32,000 nt of DNA from Okeania sp. (GCF_035285525.1 NZ_JAYKGW010000109.1:27173-59172); one strand, 5' to 3'. Shown: positions 3,800 to 27,900, counted from the stretch's first letter. The notes: generated by a model not told the origin, from the sequence alone. A program made the numbers and translations.

Positions 3800-3802
3800 C
3801 CA

Positions 3803-7265: not shown

Positions 7266-7375
7266 GTTTTTCTCATCAATCATTTCTGATGGCTATATAG
7301 CAATAATTGGCTTCTTTCTTTTTATCACAACTAATTGTATACTAATTAAACACAATTTAAAACTAAGATAATAAT

Positions 7376-7585: not shown

Positions 7586-7790
7586 ATTTAATTCTACTAA
7601 TTAGTTTCTTTTTACTGCATATTAAAAAAGTGAATAAAAGTAAGCATTCAGCATTTATCTTTTGAACTTAATAAGTTACTTAAGTTAGTTTATAGCCTTT
7701 TTATTTCCTGGGGAATGCTAAGCAAAAATAAGTTTTAATTATTTTGGGAGGCTAACTTGATCCTTCGCTATGAAAGTGAATTAATAACTC

Positions 7791-7813
7791 ATAGCTGATG
7801 GCTAAATGCTGAC
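7791..7813. repeat. STRR-like heptamer block ATAGCTGATGGCTAAATGCTGAC (GCTGA[AT]NGCTTAC family)
   Basis: The same family occurs at 367-380, 617-636, 8464-8479 and 8586-8599 in this orientation, and at 7640-7652, 8310-8336 and 10258-10268 as reverse complements. Confidence 0.7.
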
Positions 7814-7835
7814 ATCAATTTTATACTAAAAAAAC

Positions 7836-8306: not shown

Positions 8307-8309
8307 AGA

Positions 8310-8336
8310 GTAAGCATTCAGCAGTCAGCTATCAGC
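8310..8336. repeat. STRR-like heptamer block GTAAGCATTCAGCAGTCAGCTATCAGC (inverted relative to 7791-7813)
   Basis: Its reverse complement GCTGATAGCTGACTGCTGAATGCTTAC is built from GCTGAnn heptamers. It begins 4 nt after the PsiE-like stop codon. Confidence 0.7.
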
Positions 8337-8653
8337 TTGGGAAGCAAATCTATAATTTCCAGCCATAAATATACATCGTTTGATAATATCAGATATATGG
8401 TTAAAAAGTAGAATTTAAAAGAATGCTTGCCATTGATTTTTATTGCCCTTGATCTGACTACTAATAGCTAAATGCTTACATTAAAAATGATATTTGGTTT
8501 AACTAGCTATCAGCTTTTAAATGTAATAATTTACTAGGGTTTTGATTCTTTGTAAAAGTTTTTTTGCATAGTATTCTCTAGGAAAAGCTGAATGCTTATT
8601 TAGAATTTTTGATTGATAAATCATTTTTATTATCTCTGAAAAATCAAAAAAAT

Positions 8654-9109
8654 ATGAATGAAAATTATTTTGAATTTGAGCAAGATTTCGTAGCATCTCT
8701 ACGGTGCATTCCTATGATAGTACGCTATAAATTAGATACTTGTGGAGTTAAATTAAAATTATCCCACTGGCATCAATTTAATCATACAATTCGTCAAGAA
8801 TTAGTAGATAGACCTTGTACTGAACCTGAAGAAATTAAAAGTTACCGAGAATGGTTACATCAGTTAGTAATTGAGCAAACAAATACCTCTGCTAAAGATT
8901 TACCTATTCCAGAAAACCCTCCTTGGGTAGATGAGACAAAAATTCCCGAAACAGTTCAGGAAAAAGCTCAAGAAGTAGGTCTTCAAATTAATTTAAACCA
9001 ATGGAAAAATCTCACTGCAATGCAAAGGTTTGTTCTCGTTAAACTTAGTCGCCCTAGCCATGAAAATAAAAACTTTTTACCTGCTATTCAAGAATTTAAC
9101 TTGATTTGA
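8654..9109 (+). CDS. Nitrate reductase-associated protein (TIGR02664-like)
   Basis: The N-terminus MNENYFEFEQDFVASLRCIPMIVRYKLDTCGVKLKLSHWHQF matches the conserved start of this small cyanobacterial family. I prefer ATG 8654 over the TTG 8609 used by the ORF track. Confidence 0.7.
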   Translation: MNENYFEFEQDFVASLRCIPMIVRYKLDTCGVKLKLSHWHQFNHTIRQELVDRPCTEPEEIKSYREWLHQLVIEQTNTSAKDLPIPENPPWVDETKIPETVQEKAQEVGLQINLNQWKNLTAMQRFVLVKLSRPSHENKNFLPAIQEFNLI

Positions 9110-9347
9110 ATCAGAGCAAATAATGGATAATGGATAATTGATAATTAGGGCTTGCTGATTGAATATAAAAGTGTTTATATATAAAGCTTTTACCCTTTTT
9201 AGGTTGTAAAAAAGTATCAGATTTTAGCCTTATAAATCTAAAAAAGTGAGTATTTTGGTTATATTGAGGCACCCAAGTCAAGGGATAATTTTTTCGATTT
9301 ATCGGGAACCGTCCATGTCCTCTAAAACTCCTTATTCCTCTTGACTT

Positions 9348-9403
9348 CCCCTCCATCGGAGGGGTTAGGGGTGGGTGACTCTCTACTCCCTACTCCCTAT
9401 TTC
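9348..9403. repeat. CCCCTCC-N-GGAGGGGTTAGGGGTGGGTG element plus CTACTCC heptamers
   Basis: 9348-9377 is the reverse complement of the element at 16158-16184 (CCCACCCCTAACCCCTCCCAGGAGGGG). It is followed by CTACTCC CTACTCC CTATTTC at 9383-9403. Confidence 0.75.
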
Positions 9404-9413
9404 TTAACTTAAT

Positions 9414-10040
9414 TTACAGTTCAATTAAGCCTTCTGGGGGAGTAATTTCAATGATATTTTTTTCAAAATCAACTATAGGAACAATTTCTTTTACAAACGG
9501 AATTAAAATATTTTTGCCTTGAGAAGATTGAGATTTTTGCTGATGTTTTTTTCGCCGACTTGGCTCATTTTCTTGTGGTAAATTATTTGCCTTATCAACT
9601 TCAGAAATAACAGGAATATTAGATATTTTTTCTACTTCTAATAAATCACTACCAGCAGAAATCATGCTCACAACCTTCCCAAGAATTTCCCCATTTAACT
9701 GATTAATAACTGTTAAACCAATTAAATCTGGGACATAAAATTCATCTTCTTCTAGTTCAGGGCGATCGCCTTTTTCAATCAATAACAGACTATTTCGTAA
9801 ACCTTCAGCTTGTTCACGATTTTCAATTTCTGCTAACTTTATTACATATAAACCCTTACCAGAAAGATAACGACCACCTAATAATTCAATAGACTGGGGT
9901 TCCATTTGATTTGGTAATAATAACCACCTTTTTCCAGGTTCTAAGAATCTTTCTGGGAAATCTGAACTAGGATATACTCGCAGTTCTCCCCTCAAACCTT
10001 GAGGTGCAACAATTTTACCAATTTCAATCCATTCAGACAT
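9414..10040 (-). CDS. rimM: 16S rRNA processing protein RimM
   Basis: 208 aa. The N-terminus EWIEIGKIVAPQGLRGELRVYPSSDFPERF is the RimM signature, followed by a PRC-barrel-like C-terminus with a basic, hydrophilic insertion. Confidence 0.9.
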   Translation of the reverse strand: MSEWIEIGKIVAPQGLRGELRVYPSSDFPERFLEPGKRWLLLPNQMEPQSIELLGGRYLSGKGLYVIKLAEIENREQAEGLRNSLLLIEKGDRPELEEDEFYVPDLIGLTVINQLNGEILGKVVSMISAGSDLLEVEKISNIPVISEVDKANNLPQENEPSRRKKHQQKSQSSQGKNILIPFVKEIVPIVDFEKNIIEITPPEGLIEL

Positions 10041-10046
10041 AATTTA

Positions 10047-10081
10047 AGTCAGAAGTCAAAATTTAAAAGTCAAAAGTTAAA
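10047..10081. repeat. STRR heptamer tract (AGTCAGA AGTCAAA ATTTAAA AGTCAAA AGTTAAA)
   Basis: Five consecutive 7-nt units directly upstream of the rimM start. Confidence 0.85.
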
Positions 10082-10426
10082 TAGATCTGGAATTACGCAA
10101 AGAGTAAATTATACATCATCTTTAGTAAACTGACACACTTAAAAATGTAGGTTGGGTAGTAGCTTGCTTCTGTATAGCAGTACGATAGTGAAACCCAACA
10201 AAACCTTACTAATGTTGGGTTGTCACCGTCTAACGGGACGGGTTTATGTAAATCTTAGAGTAAGCATTAAAATTCTAGCTCAAACTCGCCCCCTACCCCA
10301 TACAACATTTTAAGATGAAACAATCCAGTAGGGTCGAAATGAATATAAAGTTTAAAGTTGGCTTTGATAGTAAGATTCAATTTACCTCAACTAATAAAGC
10401 TTTTATCTCAAACTAAAATAAATAAC

Positions 10427-10458
10427 TGACCGCTGACTGCTGATTGCTGAATACTTAC
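10427..10458. repeat. STRR heptamer tract CTGACCG CTGACTG CTGATTG CTGAATA CTTAC
   Basis: Strict 7-nt periodicity. It ends in the GCTGAATACTTAC variant of the dispersed motif. Confidence 0.85.
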
Positions 10459-10488
10459 TTATTAGTTAATCTTAATTTTTAGAAGTTA

Positions 10489-11841
10489 ATGAAAATTATA
10501 AAAGGAAACATACAACCAAGAAAAGCTGTTCAACCATTTGTTATTTATAGAAAAAAAAATATGGTTAGTGATAAAGGGAAAAGGAATAATAGTTGTCAAA
10601 AATTTCCCTTGACTTTACCAAAATCAATTTGTATTTTCATTTTAACTTTGATGTTTTCTATTGGTGAAAGTGCCGTATATAGTCAAAATAAAAATTATTA
10701 TATAAATAACAAAATTAACCATGATTACCAACCCGAAAAATCTTTAATTCTGCTCGCGCAAAATCAAACACAATTAGAAGAATTTGACTTTAGAGAAGAA
10801 ATTCGCGATCGCGTCCGACAAGAAGTAGATTATACTTTTCGTCATGCGACATCATTACTTGGTGTTTTTCTAATTGTTTTGACATTTTTTCCGGCTTCAG
10901 CAGCAATTTGGATTTGGTTTTCCCAAGCAAAATTAGCTAACAAAATTGATATTACAGAACAAGAAATTGATAGTTTGAAATATGACACAATATCTCAACT
11001 AAAAGAAATTGTAGAAGAGGCTCAAATTATCTTAAATGAACTGAAACAACAAAGTAATAAAGCTGATGAAAAAATTGAACAACTGCAAAAGGATACTTTG
11101 ATTCAATATTCTTCTACTCAAGAGGATAATTCTGAGCCATTAATGATGGCAAATGATTATGCCAAACAAGCCTCTCAATTTCTATTAGCAGGTCGGCCTA
11201 AAGAAGCTATTAATGCTTATAATCAAGCCTTAAAAATTTATCCAGAAATGGCAGAAATTTGGAATAATCGGGGTGTGGCATTGACAAGATTAAAGATGTT
11301 TGATGAAGCGATCGCTTCTTATGATAGAGCTTTACAAATTCAGCCTGATTATGCAGATGCTTGGAATAATCGTGGGGTTTCTTTAATAGAATTGCAGCAT
11401 TATCAGGAGGGAATTAATTCTTTTGAACAAGGAATAAAGGTTAAACCTGATTATGCAGATGCTTGGAATAATCGTGGGGTTTGTTTAGCTAAAATTCAAA
11501 AATATCAAGAGGCGGTAAAATCTTATAATCAGGCAATTGCAATTAGAAATAATTATACTGATGCTTGGAATAATCGGGGTGTTTCTTTGATGAAGTTAGG
11601 TATTTATGAAGAGGCGATCGCTTGTTTTGATAATGCTGTAAAAATTAAACCTAACTATTCTAATGCTTGGTATAATTTGGCGCGTTGTTGTAGTTTAAAA
11701 GGTGAGGTGGAAATTGCTTTACAACATTTAGAAAAAGCGATTATTTTGAATGATGGAAACTATCAGGAAATGGCAAAAAATGAACCTGATTTTGAGAATA
11801 TTCGGCATAATGATTTGTTTCAAAAATTGATATTGAATTAA
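10489..11841 (+). CDS. Membrane-anchored coiled-coil + TPR repeat protein
   Basis: 450 aa with two hydrophobic segments (ICIFILTLMFSI and LLGVFLIVLTFFPASAAIWIWF) and a coiled-coil stretch. About 6 TPR units follow, each with the recurring motif A(E/D)(A/I)WNNRGV. ATG 10561 is an alternative start. Confidence 0.85.
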   Translation: MKIIKGNIQPRKAVQPFVIYRKKNMVSDKGKRNNSCQKFPLTLPKSICIFILTLMFSIGESAVYSQNKNYYINNKINHDYQPEKSLILLAQNQTQLEEFDFREEIRDRVRQEVDYTFRHATSLLGVFLIVLTFFPASAAIWIWFSQAKLANKIDITEQEIDSLKYDTISQLKEIVEEAQIILNELKQQSNKADEKIEQLQKDTLIQYSSTQEDNSEPLMMANDYAKQASQFLLAGRPKEAINAYNQALKIYPEMAEIWNNRGVALTRLKMFDEAIASYDRALQIQPDYADAWNNRGVSLIELQHYQEGINSFEQGIKVKPDYADAWNNRGVCLAKIQKYQEAVKSYNQAIAIRNNYTDAWNNRGVSLMKLGIYEEAIACFDNAVKIKPNYSNAWYNLARCCSLKGEVEIALQHLEKAIILNDGNYQEMAKNEPDFENIRHNDLFQKLILN

Positions 11842-11878
11842 GGTAGATAGTATAGCTATTTATTATTATAATAACTAA

Positions 11879-12110
11879 CTGTCATTGCGAGGGGGGAAGG
11901 GAAAGTAATTATTTTCAAGAGAAATTATCAACACCCCCAAAGCAATCTCTAAGATGTCATTGCGAGGGGCAGGAAAAGTAATTATTTTATGTGAAGCACC
12001 CTAAGACCCCCGAAGCAATCTTTTCTGTCATACGGGAGATTGCTTCGGCTAAGTTAATAGTTATTCCGAAAAGTTAACTGCTTCTATCACCGCCTCGCAA
12101 TGACAACCTC
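11879..12110. mobile_element. MITE-like element: 5' partial copy (11880-~11950) abutting a full ~151-bp copy (11955-12105)
   Basis: The full copy has perfect 13-bp terminal inverted repeats, TGTCATTGCGAGG (11955-11967) and CCTCGCAATGACA (12093-12105). An internal hairpin is CGAAGCAATC...GATTGCTTCG. The composite is flanked directly by the 12-bp direct repeat TATAATAACTAA (11867-11878 and 12111-12122). Confidence 0.75.
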
Positions 12111-12184
12111 TATAATAACTAAATTAGCTTTAGCAAACATTTATCAATTTAGTATAATCTCTGTAATTTTAGATAAAGATTGCT

Positions 12185-12325
12185 ATGCCAGAAATTACTA
12201 TTAATTTACCAGAAGATATTTGTTCTGCTCGTCGTTTAACTGCTGAATAATTTGTTTAGGATATGTGTTTAGCAGCGGCTATATATTGGTATCAAAAAGG
12301 GGAAATTTCTCAAGAAAAAAATGAT
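12185..12325 (+). pseudogene. UPF0175-family antitoxin remnant
   Basis: Translation is MPEITINLPEDICSARRLTAE*FV*DMCLAAAIYWYQKGEISQEK. It has in-frame TAA (12248-12250) and TAG (12257-12259), and the 3' part is replaced by the next MITE copy. Confidence 0.55.
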
Positions 12326-12339
12326 AATAACTTCTAATA

Positions 12340-12481
12340 CTGTCCGCAGCGAGGGGGAAAAGAAAAGAAATTATTTTATGTGAAGCACCTCAACACTGTA
12401 ATACGAGAGATTGCTGCGGCTAAGTTAATGCTTATTCCGAAAGGTTAACTGTTTCTATCACCGCCTCGCAATGACAACCTC
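12340..12481. mobile_element. MITE-like element, copy C (variant left end TGTCCGCAGCGAGG, internal deletion)
   Basis: It shares ...ATTATTTTATGTGAAGCACC...GAGATTGCT.CGGCTAAGTTAAT...GTTAACTG.TTCTATCACCGCCTCGCAATGACAACCTC with copy B. Confidence 0.7.
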
Positions 12482-12482
12482 T

Positions 12483-12636
12483 CTGTCCGCAGCGAGGGGG
12501 AAGGAAAAGAAATTGTTTTATGTGAAGCACCCCAAAACCCCCGAAGCAATCTTTTCTGTAATATGGGAGATTGCTTTGGCTAAGTTAATAGTTATTTCTA
12601 GAAGTTAACAGTTTCTATCACCGCCTCGCAATGACA
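12483..12636. mobile_element. MITE-like element, copy D (a further 5' fragment follows at 12645-~12668)
   Basis: Full-length relative of copy B, ending in CCTCGCAATGACA (12624-12636) and directly adjoining copy C. Confidence 0.7.
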
Positions 12637-12739
12637 ATAACTTGTGTCATGGAAAGGGGAAAAGGCTGACATTTGATGAGTGATAAATAGATTATTAAAA
12701 ACTGATAACTGATAACTAAATTTCAGATGGCTGAAACAG

Positions 12740-14185
12740 CTATATTTTACATTCTACAAGTTTTTGCACGAGAGAAGAACCAACTACCGTCCACAATCGC
12801 ACAGCAAGCCAAGGGAGGTGCCCCTTATATGTGTTCAGACTAAAAGTTAGGTTTGAGTAATACAACCAGGTTCCTCCTTGACGCCATCCAACTTGATCGC
12901 CAAAATTTCTTGATATTTTACTATCATACTTCCTTGTACCACCCAAACTCTGATAAATCTGCTTCTGCACTGAAAAGCCAAATTTACCATTACTATATTT
13001 TACCCAAAGTTGGTCAATAGTTCCCAGGTCTTCGCAAGGAAAATTATCTATATCTTCTACTCTCAACCAACCTTCATTTTCTTGTCTTGCAACTTTCAAC
13101 ATACAATTAGCAGTTTCCTTGTCTGCTTCTTTCCATTTTCCTGATGCTAATAGATCGCGCAATTTTTCATATTTTACTCCTCTAGCTGAGATTAAAGGTA
13201 CATTATTAGAAACAAAATTTTGTCGAGGTTGTTGATTTTTTTGAGTAGCAGAAACAGATTTTTTTGGAGAATTTTGCAATTCTTGAGTAACAGAAACAGA
13301 AGAATTACCAAATCCTAAATCAGCCAAAACATCTTCAACCTGCTGATAACGTTGCTTTGGTTTTTGCTCTACCAAACCATCTAAAACTTTAGCCAAATTA
13401 TCACTGACAAAATTTACATTTAAACAATCTCGCCATACCCATTCCATTTCCATTACATCATACAAATCAAAGGGACTCATCTGAGTCAATAAATGTAAAC
13501 AAGTTACTCCCAAACTATACAAATCGCTAGCTAATTTTGCCTTTCCCATTGACTGTTCCGGGGCGCAATACTCTGCTGAACCAATAACTGTTCCTGTCAC
13601 TGTCCGACGTTGAGTTGTTGGTAAAATTTTAGATGCTCCAAAATCAACCAAAACTAACTTTTTATCTGCCTCTCTCCTAATAATATTCTCCGGCTTAATA
13701 TCCCGATGAATTACATTATGACCGTGAACAAATTGCAAAACAGATAATAAGTCTATTAACAATTCTCTAATTTGACTTTCATTAAAAACGCCACAATTTT
13801 CTAACTATTTTTGTAGAGTTTCACCTTGAATAAATTCCTGTACTAAATATTGACGATTATCCACAGTAAAATAACCATAAAGTTCAGGGATTTGGGAATG
13901 CTTTCCTAATAACTTCAACCTTTCTGTTTCCTGTGCAAATAACTCCGCAGCTTTTGCCACAGTTTTGGTTTCCTGTAGCTCAGGGAGAAACTGTTTAATG
14001 ACACAAAAAGGTTTAGAAGGTTTAAACTCATCTACTGCTAAAAAAGTTCGACCAAAACCACCTTGTCCGAGAATACTTTTTGCCCAATAACGTTCTACAA
14101 GTAATAGTTTATTTCCGCATTTTTGACAGAACTTAAAATTGTCTGGGTTAATAGTTAAACACTCTGGATTAAGACACTGGGACAT
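12740..14185 (-). pseudogene. Ser/Thr protein kinase with N-terminal 4-Cys zinc ribbon and C-terminal GUN4-like domain, interrupted by one in-frame TAG
   Basis: ORFs 13805-14185 and 12740-13762 share a frame. The only interruption is TAG (minus strand) at 13805-13807, and read-through gives GETLQK*LENCGVFNESQIRELLIDLLSVLQFVHGHNVIHRDIKPENI. Motifs: CLNPEC..FCQKCG, GQGGFGRTF, VIKQF, HRDIKPEN, DFG, and the GUN4-like segment GKWKEADKET...FPCEDLGTIDQLWVKYSNGKFGFSVQ. Confidence 0.8.
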
Positions 14186-14345
14186 AATTAATAATTAATA
14201 ATCAATAATGAAAATTATAACAATCCGCGCTTAGAATGAATAATTAATAATGAAAATTATCGCAATCCTTCCTTATGTATGTTGTTAAAATTCAAACCTA
14301 TTGAATAATTTCTATAGCAACCCTAAATTAGGTTATAAGATTATC

Positions 14346-14401
14346 GTAGGGGTTTGGTCTCCAAATCCCTTAGTACTTGGGTTTGGAGACCAAACCCCTA
14401 C
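14346..14401. repeat. Long near-perfect hairpin, GTAGGGGTTTGGTCTCCAAA ... TTTGGAGACCAAACCCCTAC (family copy 3)
   Basis: The 20-bp arms at 14346-14365 and 14382-14401 are exact reverse complements, and the pairing extends with one mismatch. It sits between the CocE/NonD stop and the kinase start. Confidence 0.85.
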
Positions 14402-14423
14402 AGCTAAATCTGATTCCTGATTG

Positions 14424-16085
14424 CTATATTTTATAACTTCGCTCCTTCTTCCTTCTTCCTTCTTCCTTCGTCATTGACAAAGAAATTATAGAAGGATAAT
14501 TTTTCCCGAAACTAACAGTTATGGTAATAATTTTTGCGTCAATTAATTTTACTTCTGCTGGTGGTTTATCTATACCAGGATTAATTAAATAAGCTGGAAA
14601 ACAAGCAGCACTTAAACTCAATCTTATCCCATTACCTTTAGCAATTTTCATACAAGTTGGTTGTAAACAAATTTTCACTGGCAAATCATTATCAACCACC
14701 TTAATATAACCCTGACTAAAATTATAAACATTCCCATTTTTTCTCACTTCAGACAACACAGCATAAAGATCAAAACTACTTGTATCTGCCGTACAATAAA
14801 CATTCACAAAAATATCTCCAGCTATGTGTAAGTCTGACCTTAAAAATTCAGAAGTATAAGTCAAAATATCAGTCCGACAATCTAATTCTGAACGTTCAAA
14901 AGAACCGGCTGGAAATGTCGCATGACCTCCCAATGTGGGAACTGGTCGCCAAGGGTCATGTACAAACGTATCATCAACAGAAATATCAGGGCAATTTTCC
15001 GTTAAACTTCCCGAATCTTCCCTCATATTAGCAAGTCCTGTACTAGCCAAATAATAGAACTTATTATTATTACTCGGCCAACAATTAAAATTACGCCATT
15101 CATTACTTCCCATCTCAAATAAAGAAACAGGCGATCGCTCTAATATTCCTGTATTTATTCCTTTCAGAAATTGATTAAACCATAATATTTGTAAATCATC
15201 TATGGGGTTAGAAGCTGCTAAACCATAATTTACAGCTCCTACTTTTGTTCCCCAAGGAATATGAGACCAGGGACCGACAATTAATTTTTGTAAGAATTTA
15301 CTGCGGTTTACCATTTCTTTATATAAATGAATTGTACCTCGTAAATAGGTATCAAACCAACCGCCGATATGTAAGATTGGCAGGTCTACATTTTCCATAT
15401 TTGGTGATAGGTTTTGCCAATATTCATTAGATTGATAATTTTCTATCCACTGATGATAAAAAGATTCTTTTCCATACTCATTCATCACTTTTGGGAAGGC
15501 AGGATTTGTAGTAGATAAAGGCAAATTTCTGGAAGCTTGATAAAGTTCTTGATAAGACTTTTCATCTCCTTGTAAACGAGCAGTTTCTGTTGCTAGCTGA
15601 ACTGCCCAACCAAGATTTGTTTGTAAACAAAAAGCTCCACCTTCGTAAGCCCAATCTTGATATAAATCATAACCAATCATTCCCGGACAAATTGTTTTTA
15701 AAGCAGGAGGTTTAGCACTAGCAGCATATAGTTGAGTCATGCCTTGATAAGAAAATCCATACATTCCTATTTCGCCAGTACTACCTGGTAAATTTTTTGC
15801 CCAATTAATAGTATCAATTCCATCTTCAATTTCATGGGTAAATAATTGAAATTTTCCTTCGGATGTACCTCTACCTCGGACATCTTGAATAATTACAATA
15901 TAACCATGAGCAGCGTACCATTTTGGATGAGCATAAACCACTGTGGAAGCGATCGCTCGACCATAAGGTTGTCGCATTAATATTATGGGAAATTCTCCTT
16001 CTGCATCGGGGCGATAAATATCAGCATCTAAACGTACTCCATCTCTTGTTAACATGGATGTAGTTTCTTTGGGTAAAATTTTCAT
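14424..16085 (-). CDS. CocE/NonD family hydrolase (X-Pro dipeptidyl-peptidase S15-type alpha/beta hydrolase)
   Basis: 553 aa. It begins RDGVRLDADIYRPD...PIILMRQPYGR, contains the nucleophile elbow GMYGFSYQG, and has the family's C-terminal beta-sandwich length. The last ~12 codons (EEGRRKKERSYKI) run into a CCTTCTT heptamer tract at ~14442-14470. Confidence 0.85.
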   Translation of the reverse strand: MKILPKETTSMLTRDGVRLDADIYRPDAEGEFPIILMRQPYGRAIASTVVYAHPKWYAAHGYIVIIQDVRGRGTSEGKFQLFTHEIEDGIDTINWAKNLPGSTGEIGMYGFSYQGMTQLYAASAKPPALKTICPGMIGYDLYQDWAYEGGAFCLQTNLGWAVQLATETARLQGDEKSYQELYQASRNLPLSTTNPAFPKVMNEYGKESFYHQWIENYQSNEYWQNLSPNMENVDLPILHIGGWFDTYLRGTIHLYKEMVNRSKFLQKLIVGPWSHIPWGTKVGAVNYGLAASNPIDDLQILWFNQFLKGINTGILERSPVSLFEMGSNEWRNFNCWPSNNNKFYYLASTGLANMREDSGSLTENCPDISVDDTFVHDPWRPVPTLGGHATFPAGSFERSELDCRTDILTYTSEFLRSDLHIAGDIFVNVYCTADTSSFDLYAVLSEVRKNGNVYNFSQGYIKVVDNDLPVKICLQPTCMKIAKGNGIRLSLSAACFPAYLINPGIDKPPAEVKLIDAKIITITVSFGKNYPSIISLSMTKEEGRRKKERSYKI

Positions 16086-16157
16086 TTTAATAGGTTTAAT
16101 AATTAATAATTAAAAGAGGGAAGAGGAAATAGGTAATAGGAAATAGGGGATAGGGAA

Positions 16158-16184
16158 CCCACCCCTAACCCCTCCCAGGAGGGG
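16158..16184. repeat. CCCACCCCTAACCCCTCCCAGGAGGGG element (partner of 9348-9377)
   Basis: Inverted copy of the 9348-9377 element, preceded by AATAGG(A/G) heptamer-like units at 16128-16157. Confidence 0.75.
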
Positions 16185-16348
16185 AATAATTGATGATTTA
16201 TAGATAATAATTGATTCTATTTTTGATTTTTAGAGATGTCTAATAATTAACAATAAAAAAAATGGGATTTGGAAACCAAACCCCTAAAATTTTTTTCACA
16301 AATCATTTCTTTGAGTTTATAGTATAAAAATTTTATGTTATGGATGTT

Positions 16349-16467
16349 CTTCAAAGTCCCCCTTACAAAGGGGGATTTAGGGGGATTGAAATCTACTTTT
16401 TTATATCTCCCCTTTGTCAGCGAGGGAGTCTTCAAAGTCCTCCTTACAAAGGGGGATTTAGGGGGAT
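16349..16467. repeat. Two copies of CTTCAAAGTCC(C/T)CCTTACAAAGGGGGATTTAGGGGGAT
   Basis: Copies at 16349-16386 and 16430-16467 differ by 1 nt. Each contains the hairpin CCCCTT-ACAA-AGGGGG. They create the spurious 'PLTKGDLGG' ORFs on both strands. Confidence 0.85.
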
Positions 16468-16716
16468 CAAACCCAAAACTGAGTCTTGAACCAAGATCTG
16501 TGTACACCGTAGCTTTCTCAGGCGGGTTGAATCACTGGATTACGTTCACCACAAAATTTAAGCAAATCTTCCACTTTGGCTCGAACCCTAGAAGCGATAA
16601 GCCTTAGACCGCGCCAGCGGGACAGGGTTTGGTAACAAATCATACAGTTGTCCCGTCACCCCTGCCCCCGGATTCGTGATATATCTGAGCATAGGAGCCA
16701 GCAGTAGAAGGTTTTT

Positions 16717-17469
16717 ATGCTATCCCTTGACGTTCCCCAGTATGCGTCCGCCCAAAAAATAAGTCAAACTTACCGAATTTTAGTGGTAGAAGATGAAGAA
16801 GTCATCCGCCAAATGCTGGTGCTCGCACTTCAGGAAGAAGGCTACGACGTCCTCTGGGCCGAGGATGGCCGCAGCGCCTTGGCGCTGATCCAAGATATTG
16901 AGGCCGCCTCCAATCAACCGCCTATCGATCTGATGTTGCTGGACCTGATGCTTCCCCAGGTCAACGGTCTGGATATCTGCCGCACCCTCCGTTATCAAGG
17001 CAACACCCTACCTATCCTCATCGTCAGCGCCAAGGCCAGCGAAACGGATCGGGTTTTGGGGCTAGAAGTCGGCGCCGACGATTACCTGAGCAAACCCTTT
17101 AGTATGCGGGAATTGGTTGCCCGTTGTCGGGCCCTGATTCGGCGCCAAAGTTTCGGCGCGGGTTCGACCAACACCTTCCGCAAGTTTCGGGATTTAGTGC
17201 TCTATCCCAAGGAATGCCGGGTCGTTCTCCGGGGGGAAGAGGTGAGTTTAGCGCCGAAGGAATACCGCCTACTGGAATTATTTATGGCCCATCCCCGCCG
17301 GGTTTGGTCCCGGGAACAACTAATCGAGCAAGTCTGGGGCATGGATTTTTTAGGCGACACCAAAACCGTGGATGTCCATATTCGTTGGTTACGGGAAAAA
17401 CTAGAACTAGACCCCAGTCAGCCCGAGTATATTATTACCGTTAGGGGTTTTGGCTACCGGTTTGGCTAG
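16717..17469 (+). CDS. OmpR/PhoB-family response regulator (SphR-like, assignment tentative)
   Basis: 250 aa. The receiver domain reads ILVVEDEE...DLMLLDLMLPQVNGLDIC...ILIVSAKASETDRVLGLEVGADDYLSKPF. The winged-helix C-terminus reads LAPKEYRLLELFM...VDVHIRWLREKLE...ITVRGFGYRF. Confidence 0.9.
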   Translation: MLSLDVPQYASAQKISQTYRILVVEDEEVIRQMLVLALQEEGYDVLWAEDGRSALALIQDIEAASNQPPIDLMLLDLMLPQVNGLDICRTLRYQGNTLPILIVSAKASETDRVLGLEVGADDYLSKPFSMRELVARCRALIRRQSFGAGSTNTFRKFRDLVLYPKECRVVLRGEEVSLAPKEYRLLELFMAHPRRVWSREQLIEQVWGMDFLGDTKTVDVHIRWLREKLELDPSQPEYIITVRGFGYRFG

Positions 17470-17538
17470 GCGGTTAATTTTCTCTTAACCTCGTCTATTC
17501 TAAATAGGTGTTGGCGCATCGACCGTGGGGGGTAAGCG

Positions 17539-18804
17539 ATGGATGTTTTGGCCCTAGTGTTGGGCGGACTTCTAGGTTTTGCCCTGGGATTGGGGGAGCG
17601 TTGGCGGCTCAAGCGCCGGTTAATGCCTTTTTTGACTTCCCTGGAAGATACCCCCCAGGTCGCTCGTTCTCTCTCGCTAATTTCCTTAGTACGCCGGGAA
17701 CTCGCTTATCTTAAAGACCGGGAATCCCGTCTGCTGGAGGAGCGAAGCCAGTCCCGCTTGATCTTAGAGCAGGCCCCCTGGGGCTATCTCCAGGTGGATG
17801 AAGACAACCATTTACTCTGGTGTAACCGTCAGGCCCAGAAATGGCTCCAGATTGACCGCTGGGAATCAAGGCAGTACCGGTTACTGTTAGAATGGGTGCG
17901 GTCTTCCGAGTTAGACCAATTGGTGGAGCGGACTCGCCAGACCCAAACCCCCCATATTCAGGAATGGCTTTTTTTTCCGCCCATCAACCCGGAGACCCTT
18001 AATCCAGGCAACCTCTCCTCCTGGTTACTGAAAGGGTATAGCTATCCTCTACCCCGGGGACAGGTGGCCATTTTTATCGAAAATCTCCAGCCCCTAGCGG
18101 AATTGCGCCGTAGTCGCGACCGAGTCTTCGCCGATCTGACCCACGAGTTACGCACGCCCCTGACGGCGATTTCCTTAGTCGCCGAGGCTCTCTTTCCCCG
18201 ACTTCAATCCCCAGAACAGGGCTGGGTGGGACAGATGCTGACAGAAACTGAGCGCTTACGCGCACTGGTAGACGAATGGCTCAGCCTTTCCCAGATTACG
18301 GAGAATCCGGGGCAGTGTCTGGATTTGGAAGATTTGGATCTGCGAGACGTTTTACTCTCCAGTTGGCAACGCCTGTTACCCTTAGCTCAGGAAAAACAGA
18401 TTCAACTGGATTACCAAGGCGCCGAGCAGTTATGGCTCCGGGGCGACCGGGATCGACTCATTCAAGTGTTTATCAATTTATTCGACAATTGTCTGAAACA
18501 TAGCCCAGAGAGGGGGGTAATTACCGTGTGGGCCGATTTAGGCGCTTCCCAGGCCCAGGTGCAAGTCTTGGATCAAGGCGCCGGCTTTAATCCCCAGGAT
18601 CTGCCCTTTATTTTTAACCGCCTCTACCGGGGCGATCCCTCCCGCCATCGGGGGCAGTCTCCCCGATCCGGTAGCGGTTTGGGGTTGGCTATCGCTAAAG
18701 AGATTATTGAAGCCCATCAGGGAAGCCTCGGCGCCGCCAACGATCCCCAAACCGGAGGGGCCTGTTTCACCGTCACCTTGCCGATTCTCTCAGAGGTTGT
18801 TTGA
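17539..18804 (+). CDS. Sensor histidine kinase, PhoR/SphS-like
   Basis: 421 aa with an N-terminal hydrophobic segment, a PAS-like region, the H-box FADLTHELRTPLTAI, an N-box FDNCLKHSP, FNRLYRGDPSR, and the G2 box GSGLGLAIAKEIIEAHQGSL. It starts 70 nt after the regulator stop. Confidence 0.88.
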   Translation: MDVLALVLGGLLGFALGLGERWRLKRRLMPFLTSLEDTPQVARSLSLISLVRRELAYLKDRESRLLEERSQSRLILEQAPWGYLQVDEDNHLLWCNRQAQKWLQIDRWESRQYRLLLEWVRSSELDQLVERTRQTQTPHIQEWLFFPPINPETLNPGNLSSWLLKGYSYPLPRGQVAIFIENLQPLAELRRSRDRVFADLTHELRTPLTAISLVAEALFPRLQSPEQGWVGQMLTETERLRALVDEWLSLSQITENPGQCLDLEDLDLRDVLLSSWQRLLPLAQEKQIQLDYQGAEQLWLRGDRDRLIQVFINLFDNCLKHSPERGVITVWADLGASQAQVQVLDQGAGFNPQDLPFIFNRLYRGDPSRHRGQSPRSGSGLGLAIAKEIIEAHQGSLGAANDPQTGGACFTVTLPILSEVV

Positions 18805-18967
18805 ATAAAGGGTCAACGCCCTGGTTTTATCCCCCCCTTGGACTGATCCCCTACCCAAAGAATCAGAAAAGCGCTTAACTGGACAAGAGCGTGATCTAAA
18901 TCACCCAAAGGTCGTTTGTGGTTTTGAGATTGCCGCCTTGGGTTAGTCACTTTTCTCGTTTCAAACC

Positions 18968-21900
18968 ATGTCTAACAACTACGGAGCATTTGCCGCTATT
19001 ACCGTTGATGCGGCCGGGACCGAACACGCCGTTTGGGAACAGAGCGGGGCCCTGTGGCATAGCTATTTTGATGAAACCGCTAACCAGTGGGTGGAAGGTC
19101 GTCCTGTGGCCACATCGGTTGGCGGGGGCAAACTGCAACTGATTACCGGCGATATTATTCCCTACCAAGTCACAGATACGGGAACGGGGCAAACCTTTAC
19201 CGAGTATGCGCCAGGGTTGGTGGCAATTTGGGCCGATAGCAACGGCGACCTGTTTTATGTCGTGGGGCGCTATGGGGAAGACCAAACGGTTCAGTGGTCA
19301 AATGCCGTCGAATTTGGCGCTCCTAATCTTAATAATCCCAATGACACCGTTTTTAGCCAAGATCCGGCGCTTGCGCTTACCCCAGCCACCATTACCCAAG
19401 AAGGTATAGCGACTCCGGCGGCGGTATCCGTGGTCTATTCCCAAGTCGATACCACGGTGGAATACATTGCCAACTGGCGGGGCAGTTTAGGCGATCAAAA
19501 TACCCTCATTAGCTTTCGTTTTACTGGTGTTGATAGCAATGGCGATGGCATTTTATCGGGGCGGGGCGCGAATAACAGTTTAGGGGATGGTATTAGCAAT
19601 GAATTGACAAGCTGGACAATGTTGGCGCTGTCGGCGGATGGCACGACGGTTTTAGCCAGTTATGACCTTAGCCAACAGTTAGCCCTCGACACCTTCAACT
19701 TTAATTTTGATCTAGCTAACCAACAAATTTTGGCCAATGCCGATGCAACCGTTTTTTCCCCCAGTGAAGATCTCTATGGCTTAAACACAGGGCTAGACCG
19801 TTCTGTTGATAGTGACGATGCCGTCTGGATACTCAAGAGTCAAAGCGCAAGCGAGGAGATTCAGTTACAAACCATTCCGGTCGGTTCAAACACCCCTACT
19901 ACCATTGCCATCAGTTCCCTAGCCAGCGCGATTTTTCCCGTTGCCAGCCAAACCAACGACGATACTGATCTTTACAGTGAATTCATTGCGTTTACGGGGG
20001 ATGCTCGCACTAGCGATACGCTCACCGATCAAAACGGCAATATGGTCACCTTTGCTGACCAAATACCGATTCCTGCCAGCTATGAACCTCTGGGGCCTGA
20101 GGCCCAGTTTTTGACTGCTGACACGATTAATTCCAAAAGTAATGAGGCTTTGTTGGGATTGGGCGCAACCTCTAGCAGTATTGCCACCACTCCCTTCGGC
20201 ACCACCCAAGGCTTTAATTTAACGTTTGCCGCCGCCAGTTGGATTTTAACGGGGCAAATTCCGCTACCCGCCTCCTTGATTCCGGCCGATAGCAATCAAA
20301 CGTATACCCTGACGGGGTCTATTGGCACGAGCAAGGAAGTCCAAGATGGACAAGTGGTTTACGTACTAGATACTAATGTTTCGATTGCCGAAGGGCCAAC
20401 CATTACATCTGGCTCCGATGAAAGCTCAGGTCGAGATCAATTTGTGGGAACCTCCCTGTCCCTTTCGTTAGACCTGAGCACCACATTTACCCCGGATGAG
20501 TCGGGGGATTTGCAATACTCAGACGCTTCCATAGGTTTGACGCTGGGATTTGGAACGTTTGATGCGATTCAACTGTCTGTTCCCCCTCTACCCGCAAAGC
20601 TAAAGGGAGGGATTTTGCAGGGGAGTGTCACCTTATCTAAACTGAATTTCACGGTTAATACTGGTGTTGACTTAGCAACCAAATCAACGACACCGCAACT
20701 GCCGATTTACCTGACGGGGAATGTCAACACTCCGGGTTCCATCCAGATGGTCAATCAAACCATCACGGCCTTTTTGAATGGAACAGAAGGTGAAGCGTTA
20801 GCGGGTTTGCCCCTGGCTCTATTGCAAACCATTGCTCTGCTGACCCTGGAAGAAAACGCCCAAGGGGAAGTGGAACCCGCTGAGGGAGGAATTTTAAATT
20901 ATCCTGTCGCGACGGTGGAAACCCTGATCGGCTTGCTCTATGGGTTGCAAATTGTGGAGCAGGTGGGCACGTTGTTGGGCGATTTGAAAAACTATACCTT
21001 TGAGGATCTGACTATTGGGCTGGATTATGCGCCGAACTTGAGCGGCAGTATCGGCGTGTTGTTCAATACCCTACAAGGCAACATGGGAGCGGGAGCTGAC
21101 ATTGGCATTGACTTGAATGTGGATAATACAGGGGCGGCCTCAGTCGATTTAGATTTTGCGGGTAATTTGTCGGCCAGCGCTTCATTTTTGCTCTGGAATT
21201 GGTCTTGGGGCTGGAATAAAGGGGTTAGCTATTCTTTTGATTTATCCACTAATTCATCAGCAACCTTAGCAACGGACAGCATAACTGACAGTACGGCCAG
21301 CGGCAATACAGGTGATGTCACTGTCATTTATGCCCCCACGACTGGCTCCAACATTCTTTACCAAACGACAGGGGCCGTCCGCTCCGACTTATCTGATCCC
21401 AGCGCCGGAACCCTCAATGATTTAACGGCAGATGATGATATTACCCTGGCGTTTGACCCCTATACCGGGTCAGTGTTATTGGCTTGGGTGGCGGCGGGCG
21501 GTGACAGTACCCTTCCCCTGGCCAGTCAAACCGGCGCGGTAGTTAGTCGGGTATATGCCTCGGCGTTGGATAGTTCTGGGCGGGGTTGGGATATTCCCAC
21601 CGTGGTGAATCAAACCAATGAGAGCCTTCATCCGGGGTTTAATTTCAACCCTAGTGGTGAATTTTTCTATACCAACACCAGTACCGGGGCGATCGCCAAT
21701 CCGGCCACCATTGAGGATTTTGCCGACTATACCCTTAACCGTATTTTGGTGTGGGGTTTTTCCGAAACAGCAGGGGATTTAAACGCCAACAGTACTCCTG
21801 ATGAAGTGCAAGCAGCGATCCAAGCGACCGATATTTATTACAGCCTCTCCAGTCGTCCCGCCAGTGGAGGTGTGTGGAGCGATTGGAGTGCGCCAGAAGT

Positions 21901-24900
21901 GGCGTTTGCGATGGCGGGAACCGATAGTTTACCCACGGTGGGACAAGATCCCGACGGCAATTTAAGGTTAGCTTGGGTCTCCGATAGCGCCATTAATGAT
22001 GAACCCCTCTCCACCATCTACACCAGTACCTGGGATGCCAGCAATGACCAATGGACAGAAGCGGCGATTGTCGCCCAGCAGAGCGATTTACGGGTTAGTA
22101 AGCTGATTCTGGATGCCTTTGGCTCTAATCCTGCCATTTACTGGACTGACGATATTGCGCCGAGTTACAGCGCCACGGTCTTAGATGACGATCCGGCTTG
22201 GTACTATCGCCTCAACGACAGTGGCAGTTCCGTCGCCCAAAATTTAGGTAATTTAGGCAGTACCTATAACGGCGCCTATGTAGGGGGAACGGTGGCCATT
22301 GTGGCCGATAGTGCGTTAGTGAACACCGAAACGGGTGATGGTGACCCCGATGCGTCGGCCCAATTTAGCGCCACAGCGGGGGGGTATCTTTCCATTCCCT
22401 TTAGTCAAAGCAGTTTAAACGGCAGTTACACCCTCGAACTCTGGGTCAAACTGGATAGCACGGCCAGCGGTCAAATTCTCTTACAAAAACTGCCCCTCGC
22501 CACCGACAGTAATTCAACCCCGACCCCCGAATGGATTCTACAAACTGGGGAAGGGGGAACGCTGGTGTTTGATGTGGGCAATGGCGAAATTACCAGTGAG
22601 GCGCTGACCACCGGAGAATGGTATTACGTGGTGGCGACGCTGGACAGCAGCATTAACGGTACTCAAGACAATCCGATCTCCGCCTTATATTTAAACGGCG
22701 CCTTAGTCGGGCAACAACAGGGCAGTGCCAACCCCAAAGCCGATGCGTCGGTGGTAGCCGGTCAAAATCTGGACGGACAGTTAGATGAAATCGCCATTTA
22801 CAACGCCCTCTTTACGCCAACGCCCGATCCCACAGTGGATGCGAGCGGCAACATCACGAATTATGATCCTGGCATTACTGGGGTCAATGCCATCAGCAAT
22901 CATTATGTCGCCCGCTATAATCTTCCCGCCAATGTGGTGAAAGATGGCACGTTTTATGCGGTTTACGACGGCAGTGAATGGAGTAGTAGTAATCTATTTG
23001 CGCCTCAGCCCCAAGATCCGGTGACTCAGCCCCTACTCTCCCGTCTGCCAACCTATGACGTTGTTTCCACTTCTGGCTTAGCCCCCGATGGGGTGACGGA
23101 TCTTTATACCCAAATTTCCCTCGTCAATCCCAATGCCACCCTCAACGCGATCCAAGTCACCAGCCCTGATGGCAACACTATTTGGAGTAGTAATTGGGCA
23201 ACGGATGGTCACCTTCCCCTCGCAATCATCCAAGGTGATGAACTGACTAATAATGCCAGTGGCGTTAGCCATACCCTCTTGGGCATTACAGAAACTTTTG
23301 ATCTTTATTTTCAAGGGACAGCCTCCACCTCGAACTACACCGTCAAGGTCGTTTTTAGTGATGGCGCCACAGCGACTCAATTCCAACCCTTATTACCGAA
23401 TCCCAGTCAATCGGGAACCGCCGGGGATGTCATTTCTGCCCAGGGGGACATTCTTGAAGATGAAGTGTCGAGTCTGGCTCAGATTGATAGTGGGCTGACG
23501 TTAGCTACCAGCGAAGATTATGTTGGTACTGCCATGGCCGCTGGCGCATTTCTTGATGGTCAAATGGCAATCGCCATTGCGGCCCCCTATGCCAAACCCA
23601 GCGCCAATGGCGCAACGGGGGACGGCGCCATTATCATCATTCCGGCTGGGAAAACGCTTAACAGTAATGCCGGATTAACCCTAGATCCAACCACCGTTCC
23701 CACTGGGGGTGTCCTGATTACTGGGGTAGAAGGTAGCCAAGAAAATGCCGGTTATACCTTGGGGGTAGGAGATATCAATGGCGATGGCAAAGCTGATTTA
23801 GTGATTGGCGCACCGCGAGGTAACAACCAGGCAGGCATTATTTATGTTGTCTTTGGCGAATACCTCACCGCCAACAGTAGCCTCAACCTGGCCACCCTCG
23901 TTAGTGAAGGCAAGGCCTTAGCCATTAGCGGCTTTAGTTCTGCCAGTGAAGCGGGAACTGCCTTAGCGGTGGGGAATTTAAACGGTGACGATTATGCGGA
24001 TATTTTGGTGGGCGCTCCCTATGGCTCCGCCGGGGCCGGAGAAGTCTATGCCATTTATGGTAGCGCCAGCAGTAGTTTAACGCCCCAATTAATTTTTACC
24101 GGCGAAGCGGGTAGTACCGCTGGATTTGCGGTGGACATTGTGCCGGTTAACAGCAGTCGCCATACCCTCAACGCCGATGTCCATGCCGACATTGTGATTG
24201 GCGCTCCTAATTACCAACAAACGGTCACCTTTAACAGCCGTTTTCAAAATGTCAACGCTCCCAAGGATGCCATTAATGCTTGGCTGGCCACCACGCCTAC
24301 CGTTCCCGATAACCAGAATATTACTGGCAGTAATGACCTGACCCTAACCACGGGTCGCGCCTACGTTTTGCTCGGACAGGGGGGCAATTTTGCCACCGGA
24401 CTCACCCAAAGCGCTCTGGGGGCCAATAACGGTTTTATCTTGGATGGCTCTTCCATTTTTAACAGTGATGGGGATGCAGGCTATAGCGTTTCTGGCGCTG
24501 GGGATCTTAACGGTGATACCTACGAAGATTTGGCGATCGGCGCTCCGGCGGAAAGCAAAGGGGCTGGGAGTGTTTATGTGGTCGCGGGGCGCTCCAGTTT
24601 TGCTGACTACATTGATCAAGATCCCTTGTCGTTAGCCTGGGACAGTAACCTAATTCTCACGGCTCCAGAAGCCAGCGCCCATTTGGGTCGTTTGGTGGCA
24701 GATGCAGGCGATTTTAATGGCGATGGTGCTAATGATTTACTGATTGGTTCCCCGAATGCGGGCTACAGCGCCGGTCAAGCCCATATCCTGTTTGGCAATA
24801 CCAGCAGTAGCAATAATCCCCTTTGGAGCAGCGCCACGGGCAACGCCTACAGCACCATTACCCCCCTGCAACCCGGCGCTACCCAAGGAACAGCTTTCTT

Positions 24901-27900
24901 TAACCAATTGGCTAGTGCCCCCGATCCGAGTTTTAATTACTTCACGTTGAATGGAACCAATCCCCAAGACTTAATGGTTCCGGCCACCGATGCGGTAGAT
25001 GTCAATGGTGATGGCGTAGAGGATTTACTCGCCAGCGCCCTCGTTGGCAATCAAGTGGGCATTTTATTTGGCCATCCTTGGCTGGCGGACGAAGGCAGCT
25101 TGAAAATTAAAGACCTGACATCCAATCAGGGATTGATTATTCCGGGCGCAATTGACAACCCCACCGCCGCTCCACAGGTGATTTTACTGGGGGATTTAAA
25201 CGGTGATGGCTATAGTGAAACCTTGGTCAACAATACCCCCACCGCTAGTACTCTTGTCTTTGGGGGCGGCACCCAAGCACTTCTCGATGACAGTCTGGTT
25301 ACTCGTGAATTGACCTTAACCCAAGCGGTTTCTACCCAGTACACCGCCGTGGGGGATGTCAATGGGGATGGTTTGCAAGATGTTGTGGCAGAAACGAGCA
25401 ATTCTGCCCTAAATTTGAATGGCATTAACAATTATGCTCAAATTCCCAATATCGAAGCGATTAACTTTGATACGAATGACAACTTTACTGTAGAAGCGTG
25501 GATTTGGATCGATACCCAACAGCCAGATACCCAAGAGGGGGACAATGACATCATTGAAAAATGGTCAGAGCAAGGGGGATATCCGTTTGTTATTCGCTAT
25601 CAGAGAAGCGCTGGAGAAATTCTTGTCGCTCGTTTTGATGGCACAAATAATCCTGCCATAAGCGCAAAAATTGGAACTAACCAGTTCTACCATGTCGCCT
25701 TTGTTAAAGACGGTAAAAATTTATACCTTTATTTGGATGGCGAACTTGCGGCTTCCGCAACTGATACCACCACCAACAGCACTCAAAATAACTCTCCTCT
25801 ATTTTTAGGCAGAAGGGGTGCGAGTGATCGCCCTAACTATTTTGCTGGGCAGATCGATAATCTCCGTATCTGGAATGTGGCCCGTACCCAAGCCGAAATT
25901 CAGGCCAATCTCAACCAAACCATTGACAAGCCTCTAACCCAAACCAATTTAGTCGGGGATTACACCTTTGATAATGGAACGGTAGATGACAGTAGCCAAA
26001 AAGGAAATAACGGCGCTCTGGAAGCGGGAGCAACGATTACAATGGTTTCAGCCATCACGAGTTTATTGTTGGGGAATGAGACGTTAGGAACCCAAGAAAC
26101 GTTAGATATTTCCACGTTACCGTCCTTCTCTCTATCCTCATTATCTGGGTCAATTACAAACATTGTGCCGGGATTAGATCCCAATGGCGATGGATTTAAC
26201 GACTGGTTGATACAGACAACGGAAGCACTTTACTGGGTTGTGGGTAATGCCGAGGGAACGATCGCCGATCCGGTGGCGTTAGATTTGAGTAATGCCCCCC
26301 TAACGTTCACAGAATTTTTAGGTATTACGGCGATCGCCGACACCAACAATGATGGTTACAGCGACTTGATTGGCATTAACGCTAGCAGCACCCCTGAACT
26401 AAGAATTCCCTATGTCATTTATGGTTCGGCTAATTTTGGTCAAACAGACACTGCTCTCACCTATGGGCAATTACCGACCGTTAATTTATCTTTATCACCC
26501 CAATTGGATGTCTTAGACATTGGCGATGTTAATGGGGATGGCAAGGGCGATTTTGTGGTGATTGGCTCAGGGATTGAGGACAATCTTTTTTATCTTGCCA
26601 TTAGTGGCAGTGGAGAAACAAATTACACTTACGCCTCGCTAGAAGGTGAAAACATTGCTGACACCAATCCTTTGCAGTTAATCGGCAATGGAGATATTAA
26701 TGGGGATGGCTTTGATGATGTCATTGTCGGACAACCCAGTGCATCCAAAGTCTATGTCGTTTTTGGCAGTCCTAACTGGAAAAATGTAGGACAGACTGAT
26801 TTTATTTTCCTTCCCAGCCTCACCACATCAGCCACAACAACCGTTACTGCTGATGGTTTACCCCTATTCGGACTAACCATCGAAGGGCTGGCCAACTCCC
26901 AAGCTGGCTTAACCCTCGGTGGCGGTGAGGATGTGAATGGCGATGGGTTTGCCGATTTTGCCATTGGCGCACCGGGTGTGGATAACCTTAGCTATGTGCT
27001 GTTTGGCGGTGATTTCCTCGCAACATTGAGCCAAGGGGGAACGATCGCCAACGATGTTTTGGAGGGAACAGCAACGGGAGATAAAATTATCGGGAGCAAT
27101 GGCGCAGATTTTTTGGACGGCCGAGGAGGGTTTGATGTCCTTGTGGGTGGCTCCGGTAATGATGTCCTTGCCATTGGCGATACCGATTTTCGACGAGTTG
27201 ATGGGGGCAGTGGGCGCGACACTCTTAAGCTGGCAGGAGCGCTCAATCAAGTCTGGGATTTAACCGAGCTAAGCAGTGGTTTGCGACTCCAAAATCTAGA
27301 AGTTATTGACATGACCGGCTATGGCGAAAATACGTTAACCCTCAATGCCTTAACGGTTCTGAATTTATCTACCACCAGTAACAGCCTCTTTGTGGATGCA
27401 GATTCTGGCGCAAATGGTTTTACCGACACTCTATTCTTAGCGAGTGACTTTACCAACCAAGGAACCGTATCTGGTAATGGCGTTACCTACGATAAATATA
27501 CGTCGGCAGAAGCGTCTATTTATGTCACACCCGGAGTTCGGGTTATCTCTCTGGACACACTAACAGTTGTCACCACCAACGATGATATTGGTTCCGTCGA
27601 GGTCGCCATTACAAGCTTGACTGCGCCAGAAGAAAATTCCGTCGCCGTCTTCGACGCAACCCCCCGCATTTTTGTCTCTGAAGGGGTGGTTTCTGAAAGC
27701 GAATCAGAGGCTAAGTTCACAGTTACCCGAACTGGTGACATTAGTGAAGGCTTAACCCTAAATTACACGACTCTCGATGGTACTGCTGATGCGGGCACCC
27801 ATTTTATCCCTCGCTCCGGCAAACTGATTTTTGGGCCGGGGGTCGAAACCCTCTCTGTGGATATTCCCCTGATTGATGACATTATTCTACGGCAGTCCAA

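Follow-up and report, generated by a model that had tools for sequence, protein, structure and literature searches.

The window analyzed here is the whole 32,000-nt stretch of DNA, which lies within an NCBI contig of 59,172 bp that carries the label Okeania sp. (taxid 3100323). It raises the question of how two kinds of cyanobacterial DNA came to lie end to end in a single record. The original prediction, made from the sequence alone, was that the genome signature changes abruptly in mid-window, reflecting either foreign DNA acquired very recently as an island or the union of two organisms in one contig. As deposited, the contig runs on without a break or Ns, and its annotation crosses the junction. 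Its protein accessions, MEB3341129 to MEB3341146, are consecutive over this point, where an S15 peptidase (MEB3341140) is followed by a response regulator (MEB3341141). The join exists in the public record, and the question is whether it arose by gene transfer or by assembly.

Two lineages in one contig

The GC content in 1-kb windows was 0.28–0.39 up to position 16,500 and 0.40–0.54 beyond it, with means of 0.340 for the left half and 0.497 for the right half. Codon choice differed between the halves as well. GC3 was 0.17–0.32 in all 13 ORFs of the left half, and it was 0.61, 0.60, 0.50 and 0.50 in the four genes past the switch, with values of 0.37 and 0.45 in ORF 29,193–30,899 and in a shadow ORF at 31,145–31,900, respectively. 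The last gene on the left, coding for the S15 peptidase, had a GC3 of 0.206 versus 0.610 for the first gene on the right, the response regulator, with 631 bp between them. Coding density, calculated from the ORF coordinates, was ~65% on the left and ~93% on the right. The HIP1 octamer (GCGATCGC), expected by chance 0.15 times, occurs 14 times in the window: 12 copies lie left of 15,956 and two on the right (21,689 and 26,330). Tandem arrays of heptamers, as detected by TRF, occurred only in the left half, the last of them at 16,117–16,157, and dispersed repeat families (D5, D7, D12, D13 and others) were found in the left half or at the junction only, the repeats of the right half being exclusively intragenic FG-GAP units.

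Tetranucleotide z-scores gave a similar picture. The left half correlated with loci of its own lineage at r = 0.65–0.75 and with those of the right lineage at r = 0.22–0.32. The corresponding values for the right half were 0.63–0.68 with the right lineage and 0.38–0.46 with the left lineage, and the correlation between the two halves was 0.40. Thus, the predicted mid-window change of signature was borne out (from 0.340 to 0.497 in GC and from ~0.2 to ~0.6 in GC3), as were the HIP1 counts, given previously as 12 on the left and two on the right at ~21688 and ~26329, the lack of the left-half repeat families on the right, and the difference in codon choice. Comparisons of GC, GC3 and tetranucleotides, which had been proposed as a check, revealed a sharp step rather than a smooth profile, and the anomaly stands. 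Composition and oligonucleotide signature change together at one point, as is the case in inter-genome chimeric contigs.

It had also been proposed that each half be searched separately, and this placed the best relatives and the synteny of the two sides in different lineages rather than in one genome. For the left half, the comparison loci were from Trichodesmium sp. MO_231.B1 (L008), Dapis (L011) and a Microcoleaceae MAG (L031). The left half shared synteny and 81–91% nucleotide identity with these loci, whose GC content is 0.33–0.38 throughout and which carry 1–11 HIP1 sites per 10 kb. For example, the order of genes for S66 peptidase, epimerase, PsiE, nitrate-reductase-associated protein and RimM is common to the window and the Trichodesmium locus (81–91% nucleotide identity), and the pair formed by a Pkinase-GUN4 remnant and the S15 peptidase gene is common to the window and the Microcoleaceae MAG (82–87%). 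In the S15 peptidase region nucleotide identity with the latter was 87%, and the alignment ended at 16,092. The best homologues of this peptidase, which include Trichodesmium and Microcoleaceae proteins, were 85–91% identical to it. Protein clusters at 90% that contained left-half genes included Okeania sp. SIO2F4, SIO3I5 and SIO1H6, Trichodesmium MAGs and Dapis strains.

The right half was 89–97% identical at the nucleotide level, intergenic DNA included, to four independent genomes of the Cyanobacteria bacterium RI_101 group. The right-lineage loci used were those of RI_101 itself (L002 and L003, from read set SRR10063240) as well as L004, L033 and L092, and JAYKIZ and samp_483 MAGs were also considered. 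Identity was ~90% to L002, L003 and L033 over 16,553–18,844 and 89% to L092 over 17,528–18,785; at the far end of the window (31,306–32,000) it was 89% to L002 and 96.5–96.7% to L033 and L092. These loci have a GC content of 0.54–0.56 and no HIP1 sites. The response regulator shares 245–247 of its 250 residues with proteins of RI_101 and of the JAYKIZ and samp_483 MAGs, and the histidine kinase had only relatives of at most 44% in a metagenome scan, the loci of which (L034–L091) were disregarded. The protein clusters of the right half consist of RI_101-group MAGs and this contig only; in the protein collection, no other Okeania, Trichodesmium or Dapis genome contained these genes at 90% or above. 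A genome-wide ranking of GTDB representatives by the neighbouring Pkinase-GUN4 gave RI_101 (100%), samp_483 (85%), Snowella (65%), Synechocystis (59%) and Crocosphaera (56%). By this ranking, the right-half lineage is far removed from Microcoleaceae, its next relatives being Snowella, Synechocystis and Crocosphaera.

In RI_101 (L002), the native gene order is ilvC, response regulator, histidine kinase, chorismate lyase (minus strand) and Pkinase-GUN4 (minus strand), and the block runs on into dnaX and then the genes for ATP synthase gamma and alpha subunits. L033 keeps the response regulator, histidine kinase and chorismate lyase genes together, and L092 the histidine kinase, chorismate lyase and Pkinase-GUN4 genes. 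In samp_483 the histidine kinase and chorismate lyase have consecutive accessions (MFN5515774 and MFN5515773), suggesting that the two genes are adjacent there too. The chorismate lyase gene that had been noticed on the right side of the window is indeed present (Table 1). By its gene order, the right half, outside an inner 12.4-kb segment described below, is chromosomal backbone in its native arrangement and does not resemble an accessory cassette.

Table 1. Positions of the main features, counted from the first nucleotide of the window
Feature	Coordinates	Strand	Basis or remarks
Okeania/Trichodesmium-type DNA	1–16310		GC 0.34, GC3 ~0.2, 12 HIP1 sites, heptamer arrays, dispersed repeats, three broken genes
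S15 (CocE/NonD) peptidase, MEB3341140, last left-type gene	14424–16085	−	Pfam
Last heptamer (STRR-like) tandem array, left type	16117–16157		TRF
Last copy of left-half dispersed repeat; rightmost clearly left-type sequence	16251–16310		Families D5 and D7; other copies at 1821 and 7228
Breakpoint interval	16311–16511		Markov maximum (16,406) and homology bracket
PLTKGDLGG-type 39-nt repeat, copy 1	16348–16386	+	Family D13
PLTKGDLGG-type repeat, copy 2	16429–16467	+	Family D13; 97% identical to copy 1
Upstream region of response regulator, right-lineage type	16512–16716	+	Alignments, BLAST; very strongly conserved from 16,553
OmpR/PhoB-type response regulator, MEB3341141, first right-type gene	16717–17469	+	Pfam
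Sensor histidine kinase (PhoR-like), MEB3341142	17539–18804	+	Pfam; 89–90% nucleotide identity to L002, L033 and L092
12.4-kb segment missing from L002, L033 and L092	18845–31305	+	Alignment gap
Chorismate lyase, MEB3341146, right-lineage type	31278–31844	−	96.5–96.7% nucleotide identity to L033 and L092 from 31,306
Right-lineage chromosome resumes: chorismate lyase, then 3′ end of Pkinase-GUN4	31306–32000		Nucleotide alignments

Position and content of the junction

To place the switch, we used third-order Markov models trained on left- and right-lineage loci from which the parts homologous to the window had been left out. The cumulative log-likelihood ratio reached its maximum at 16,406, on a plateau of ~16,350–16,510. 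All 1-kb bins from 1 to 16,000 were left-like (+43 to +119 nats) and those from 17,001 to 29,000 and from 31,001 to 32,000 were right-like (−18 to −103); bins at 29–31 kb were ambiguous (+10 to +16). Homology bracketed the join between 16,310, where the last left-type repeat ends, and 16,512, where matches to L004 begin; those to L002, L003 and L033 begin at 16,553. The switch had previously been placed at 16470–16720. The switch itself is real, but it lies slightly to the left of this position, within 16,311–16,511.

The breakpoint interval showed no homology to either lineage other than a PLTKGDLGG-type repeat, two copies of which are separated by a unique 42-nt spacer, and the 44 nt that follow the second copy (16,468–16,511) match neither lineage. 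This repeat had been listed among the features of the left half. It is not confined to that half: the family is shared with RI_101, which has a copy at the equivalent spot (L002, 9,782–9,820), just upstream of the conserved leader of the response regulator gene, and left-lineage loci contain only a degenerate trace of it. The exactly shared stretch, past the one mismatch, is ~26 nt, and there are two copies at the join. Because RI_101 has a copy at the equivalent place, the repeat is a candidate site for a false join, and it is plausible that k-mers were shared at this point.

The statement that the junction lacks a tRNA, integrase or transposase held true, and no direct repeat linked the junction to the right half. 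No tRNA or tmRNA was detected in the window, no integrase or transposase domain was found by Pfam among its ORFs, and a search for direct repeats between the junction and the right half found none. Thus, none of the usual boundary marks of an island (tRNA or tmRNA, integrase or transposase, flanking direct repeats) was observed. Rfam searches of the window gave nothing at the gathering threshold, with only chance-level matches near the junction, and an exact look-up of small ORFs spanning the junction retrieved no entry from the protein collection.

Two other elements near the junction were observed. A 47-nt hairpin-type repeat (…CCACCCCTAACCCCTCCCAGGAGGGGAA…) at 16156–16201, within left-type intergenic DNA, shows an 87% match to L004 (1953–1997) and is a second short repeat family common to both lineages; a contig of read set SRR19514071 (L001) ends within it. 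On the right side, the sequence at 16553–16716 is more conserved among four right-lineage genomes than the coding sequence and is nearly invariant from ~16,630 to the start codon of the response regulator; the L092 locus ends before reaching this region. It has no Rfam match, and its conservation suggests that it acts as a leader, as a small RNA or in autoregulation. In a metagenome scan, the conserved motif upstream of the regulator gave 0 matches.

Origin of the join

It is probable that the contig is an inter-genome assembly chimera, and that the junction is a database artefact and not a case of gene transfer. The DNA from position 1 to ~16.4 kb would then come from an Okeania/Trichodesmium-type filamentous cyanobacterium and that from ~16.5 kb to at least 32 kb from another, unicellular-type cyanobacterium of the RI_101 group. 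The two genomes would have been joined in silico inside two intergenic regions that became fused, with no biological mechanism at work. The most plausible route would be a short repeat family present in both genomes, namely the 39-nt PLTKGDLGG-type repeat at 16,348–16,467, and we infer that the join is artificial and repeat-mediated. The original prediction had left the choice between a recent foreign island and a join of two organisms; the latter is favored, and the island appears much less likely.

Several lines of evidence led us to favor a chimera. First, the two halves go with different lineages by sequence, by gene order and by oligonucleotide signature, and it is in these lineages that their closest relatives are found. 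Second, the right half is core chromosome of the other lineage in its native order, with intergenic DNA and the region upstream of the regulator intact. Third, no amelioration has taken place, as GC3 is 0.21 on one side versus 0.61 on the other over 631 bp, and nothing at the boundary is island-like. Fourth, no further Okeania, Trichodesmium or Dapis genome of the protein collection has the segment, and the PLTKGDLGG-type family is found at the equivalent position in RI_101. Known inter-genome chimeric contigs, as generally understood, share these properties: an abrupt switch of GC, codon and oligonucleotide usage within one contig, best matches and synteny in different lineages for each side, no mobility genes, and a junction in non-coding DNA at a short repeat.

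The read data favor a chimera indirectly, since SRR19514071 reproduces the left DNA and exact Logan copies were obtained for the left half only. Independently assembled contigs of this run (L001 and L007) match the window at 4,391–7,263 and 14,374–16,181 with 100% identity, and the exact contig on the left side of the junction ends at 16,181. In exact look-ups of complete proteins, 7 of the 10 left-half proteins versus none of the 6 right-half proteins had a copy in Logan read-set assemblies. A Fisher calculation on these counts gave ~0.01, or 0.02 when the giant protein of the right half was omitted. The left-half copies include a 126-aa ORF on a 904-bp contig, and three of the seven were traced to SRR19514071. 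The 2.3-kb stretch containing the regulator and kinase genes is free of repeats and still had no Logan copy. This asymmetry fits a second organism that was absent from SRR19514071 or present at much lower depth, although this run may not be the source of the assembly.

Three observations speak against a chimera. The contig is continuous and has no Ns, so that some assembler found a path through the junction. There are two copies of the repeat at the join, whereas only one would be expected from a simple collapse via a shared repeat; in this respect the contig differs from collapsed-repeat chimeric contigs. Finally, with a final k of 55 or more, an exact match of ~26 nt would be short.

The main alternative is a very recent and real transfer of at least 15.5 kb of RI_101-group chromosomal DNA into the intergenic region upstream of the S15 peptidase gene, with no time for amelioration. 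Recombination at the PLTKGDLGG-type repeat, whether illegitimate or guided by the repeat, may have been the route of such a transfer. We consider a real transfer unlikely. The continuous public record with consecutive accessions across the junction is compatible with it, as are the intact flanking genes and the intact region upstream of the regulator, and the repeat family shared at the junction could guide recombination as well as misassembly. In addition, as in genomic islands, the composition deviates from that of the host, the segment is missing from close relatives and the cargo includes large surface or adhesin-type proteins (a giant RTX/FG-GAP protein and PEP-CTERM proteins), which are of a kind often found in islands. 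However, unlike genomic islands, the segment has no tRNA, integrase, transposase or direct-repeat boundary, and no second boundary is visible in the window. Its gene content is also not that of an island, since only the inner 12.4 kb is accessory: what lies on both sides of this inner segment is core chromosome of another lineage with the donor order kept, which is atypical for a mobile cassette. No other Okeania, Trichodesmium or Dapis genome of the collection contains the segment, and none of its proteins has an exact Logan copy, whereas SRR19514071 yields the left DNA exactly.

The gap of 40 points in GC3 implies that the transfer, if real, was extremely recent. An Okeania-type organism would have taken up at least 15.5 kb of unameliorated core DNA, in donor order and without a recognizable mobile element, from a distant unicellular-type cyanobacterium, and this seems improbable to us. 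Integration in that case may have proceeded by recombination at a short dispersed repeat common across cyanobacterial orders. If the junction is real, it would represent a striking inter-order transfer of core chromosomal DNA without a mobile-element signature.

It is also conceivable, at a rather low probability, that the chimera arose after assembly or in the laboratory, independently of any shared repeat. A chimeric long read, a ligation or MDA chimera, gap closing or scaffolding that left no Ns, or a pooled co-assembly in which data from different samples were merged could have been the source. The two repeat copies with their unique 42-nt spacer fit a simple de Bruijn collapse poorly, and the stretch at 16,468–16,511 that matches neither lineage is in line with such sources. 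Habitat is a further consideration. The Okeania-type relatives of the left half are marine. For RI_101, the nearest right-lineage relative, the read set (SRR10063240) appears in a list of geothermal data sets used for comparison (PMC8468003), and a literature search with the run and assembly accessions returned nothing beyond this listing. This difference is a hint that the habitats of the two organisms may not be the same. If the right-half organism is geothermal like its relative, its co-occurrence with Okeania would be odd, and a pooled or cross-sample assembly would be indicated. However, the habitat argument relies on a relative that is only ~90% identical, and nothing in the sequence reveals which technology was used. 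Such an origin is moreover a sub-case of an artefactual join and has the same practical consequence. Natural heterogeneity of composition within one genome, for instance a native high-GC region, is favored only by the continuity of the record, and we rejected it as next to impossible because the right half is 89–97% identical to genomes of another lineage with a GC content of 0.54–0.56 and no HIP1 sites, and left-lineage loci stay at 0.33–0.38 throughout.

Recognition of the join, if it is an artefact, would be of value for data hygiene and curation. At least six RefSeq entries under Okeania sp. (WP_324236567 to WP_324236572, i.e., the response regulator, the histidine kinase, a 3153-aa LamG/RTX protein, two PEP-CTERM proteins and chorismate lyase) are probably proteins of another cyanobacterial lineage. 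From such entries, horizontal transfer could be wrongly inferred, and errors could enter pan-genomes and taxonomic assignments. We expect that contamination by a second cyanobacterium is unlikely to be flagged by phylum-level screens. GUNC and metaMIC are tools designed to flag inter-genome chimeric contigs.

The 12.4-kb insert and other features of the two halves

The segment at 18,845–31,305 is separate from the switch at 16.4 kb and does not explain it. It is located between the convergent genes for histidine kinase and chorismate lyase; in the latter, the final residues and the stop are replaced by insert sequence. The insert contains genes for a 3153-aa LamG/FG-GAP/Calx-beta/RTX protein and two PEP-CTERM proteins as well as a 69-aa gene fragment. 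Its tetranucleotide correlation with the right lineage was 0.57–0.63. Since it has right-lineage DNA on both sides and a lineage-like signature, the insert looks like a genuine strain-variable region of the right-half organism, comparable to a bona fide insertion/deletion polymorphism in an RI_101-group chromosome whose two flanks are of the same lineage.

A search among 5.8 billion proteins with the N-terminal 1500 aa of the 3153-aa protein found only three homologues (41–43%). The list contained no fragments identical to this region, and the protein's own entry was missing from it as well. As the homologue search appears to hide self-hits, the lack of identical fragments is weak evidence. 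The PEP-CTERM/DUF1254/DUF1214 gene at 29193–30899 has a GC content of 0.415 and a GC3 of 0.37, below the rest of the right half, and was ambiguous in the Markov analysis; its cluster-mates at 90% came from ENA, one of them also from NCBI. This gene may stem from a source different from that of the rest of the insert. A 69-aa ORF at 30933–31142, just inside the right boundary of the insert, resembles a truncated N-terminal gene fragment, and it was not present in the protein collection. A 251-aa ORF at 31145–31900 (plus strand), antisense to chorismate lyase, has no Pfam match and an arginine/proline-rich translation and is therefore almost certainly no real gene but a shadow ORF.

Three genes of the left half are broken. 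A PALP (threonine-dehydratase-like) gene is frameshifted at about 1190 (plus strand). An AlbA_2/HATPase_c_4 gene has an in-frame TAG at 2511–2513 (plus strand) and is thereby divided into two abutting ORFs in the same frame. The left-half Pkinase-GUN4 gene has an in-frame TAG at 13805–13807 (minus strand), and the homologous stretch of the Microcoleaceae MAG (L031) contains no called gene. We considered whether the two Pkinase-GUN4 genes of the window, one in each half, are duplicated orthologues, but they are only 31% identical and the comparison was uninformative. The stop in the left-half gene is not an error specific to this contig, because it is reproduced in a Logan read-set contig (P0302, with Logan as the only source).
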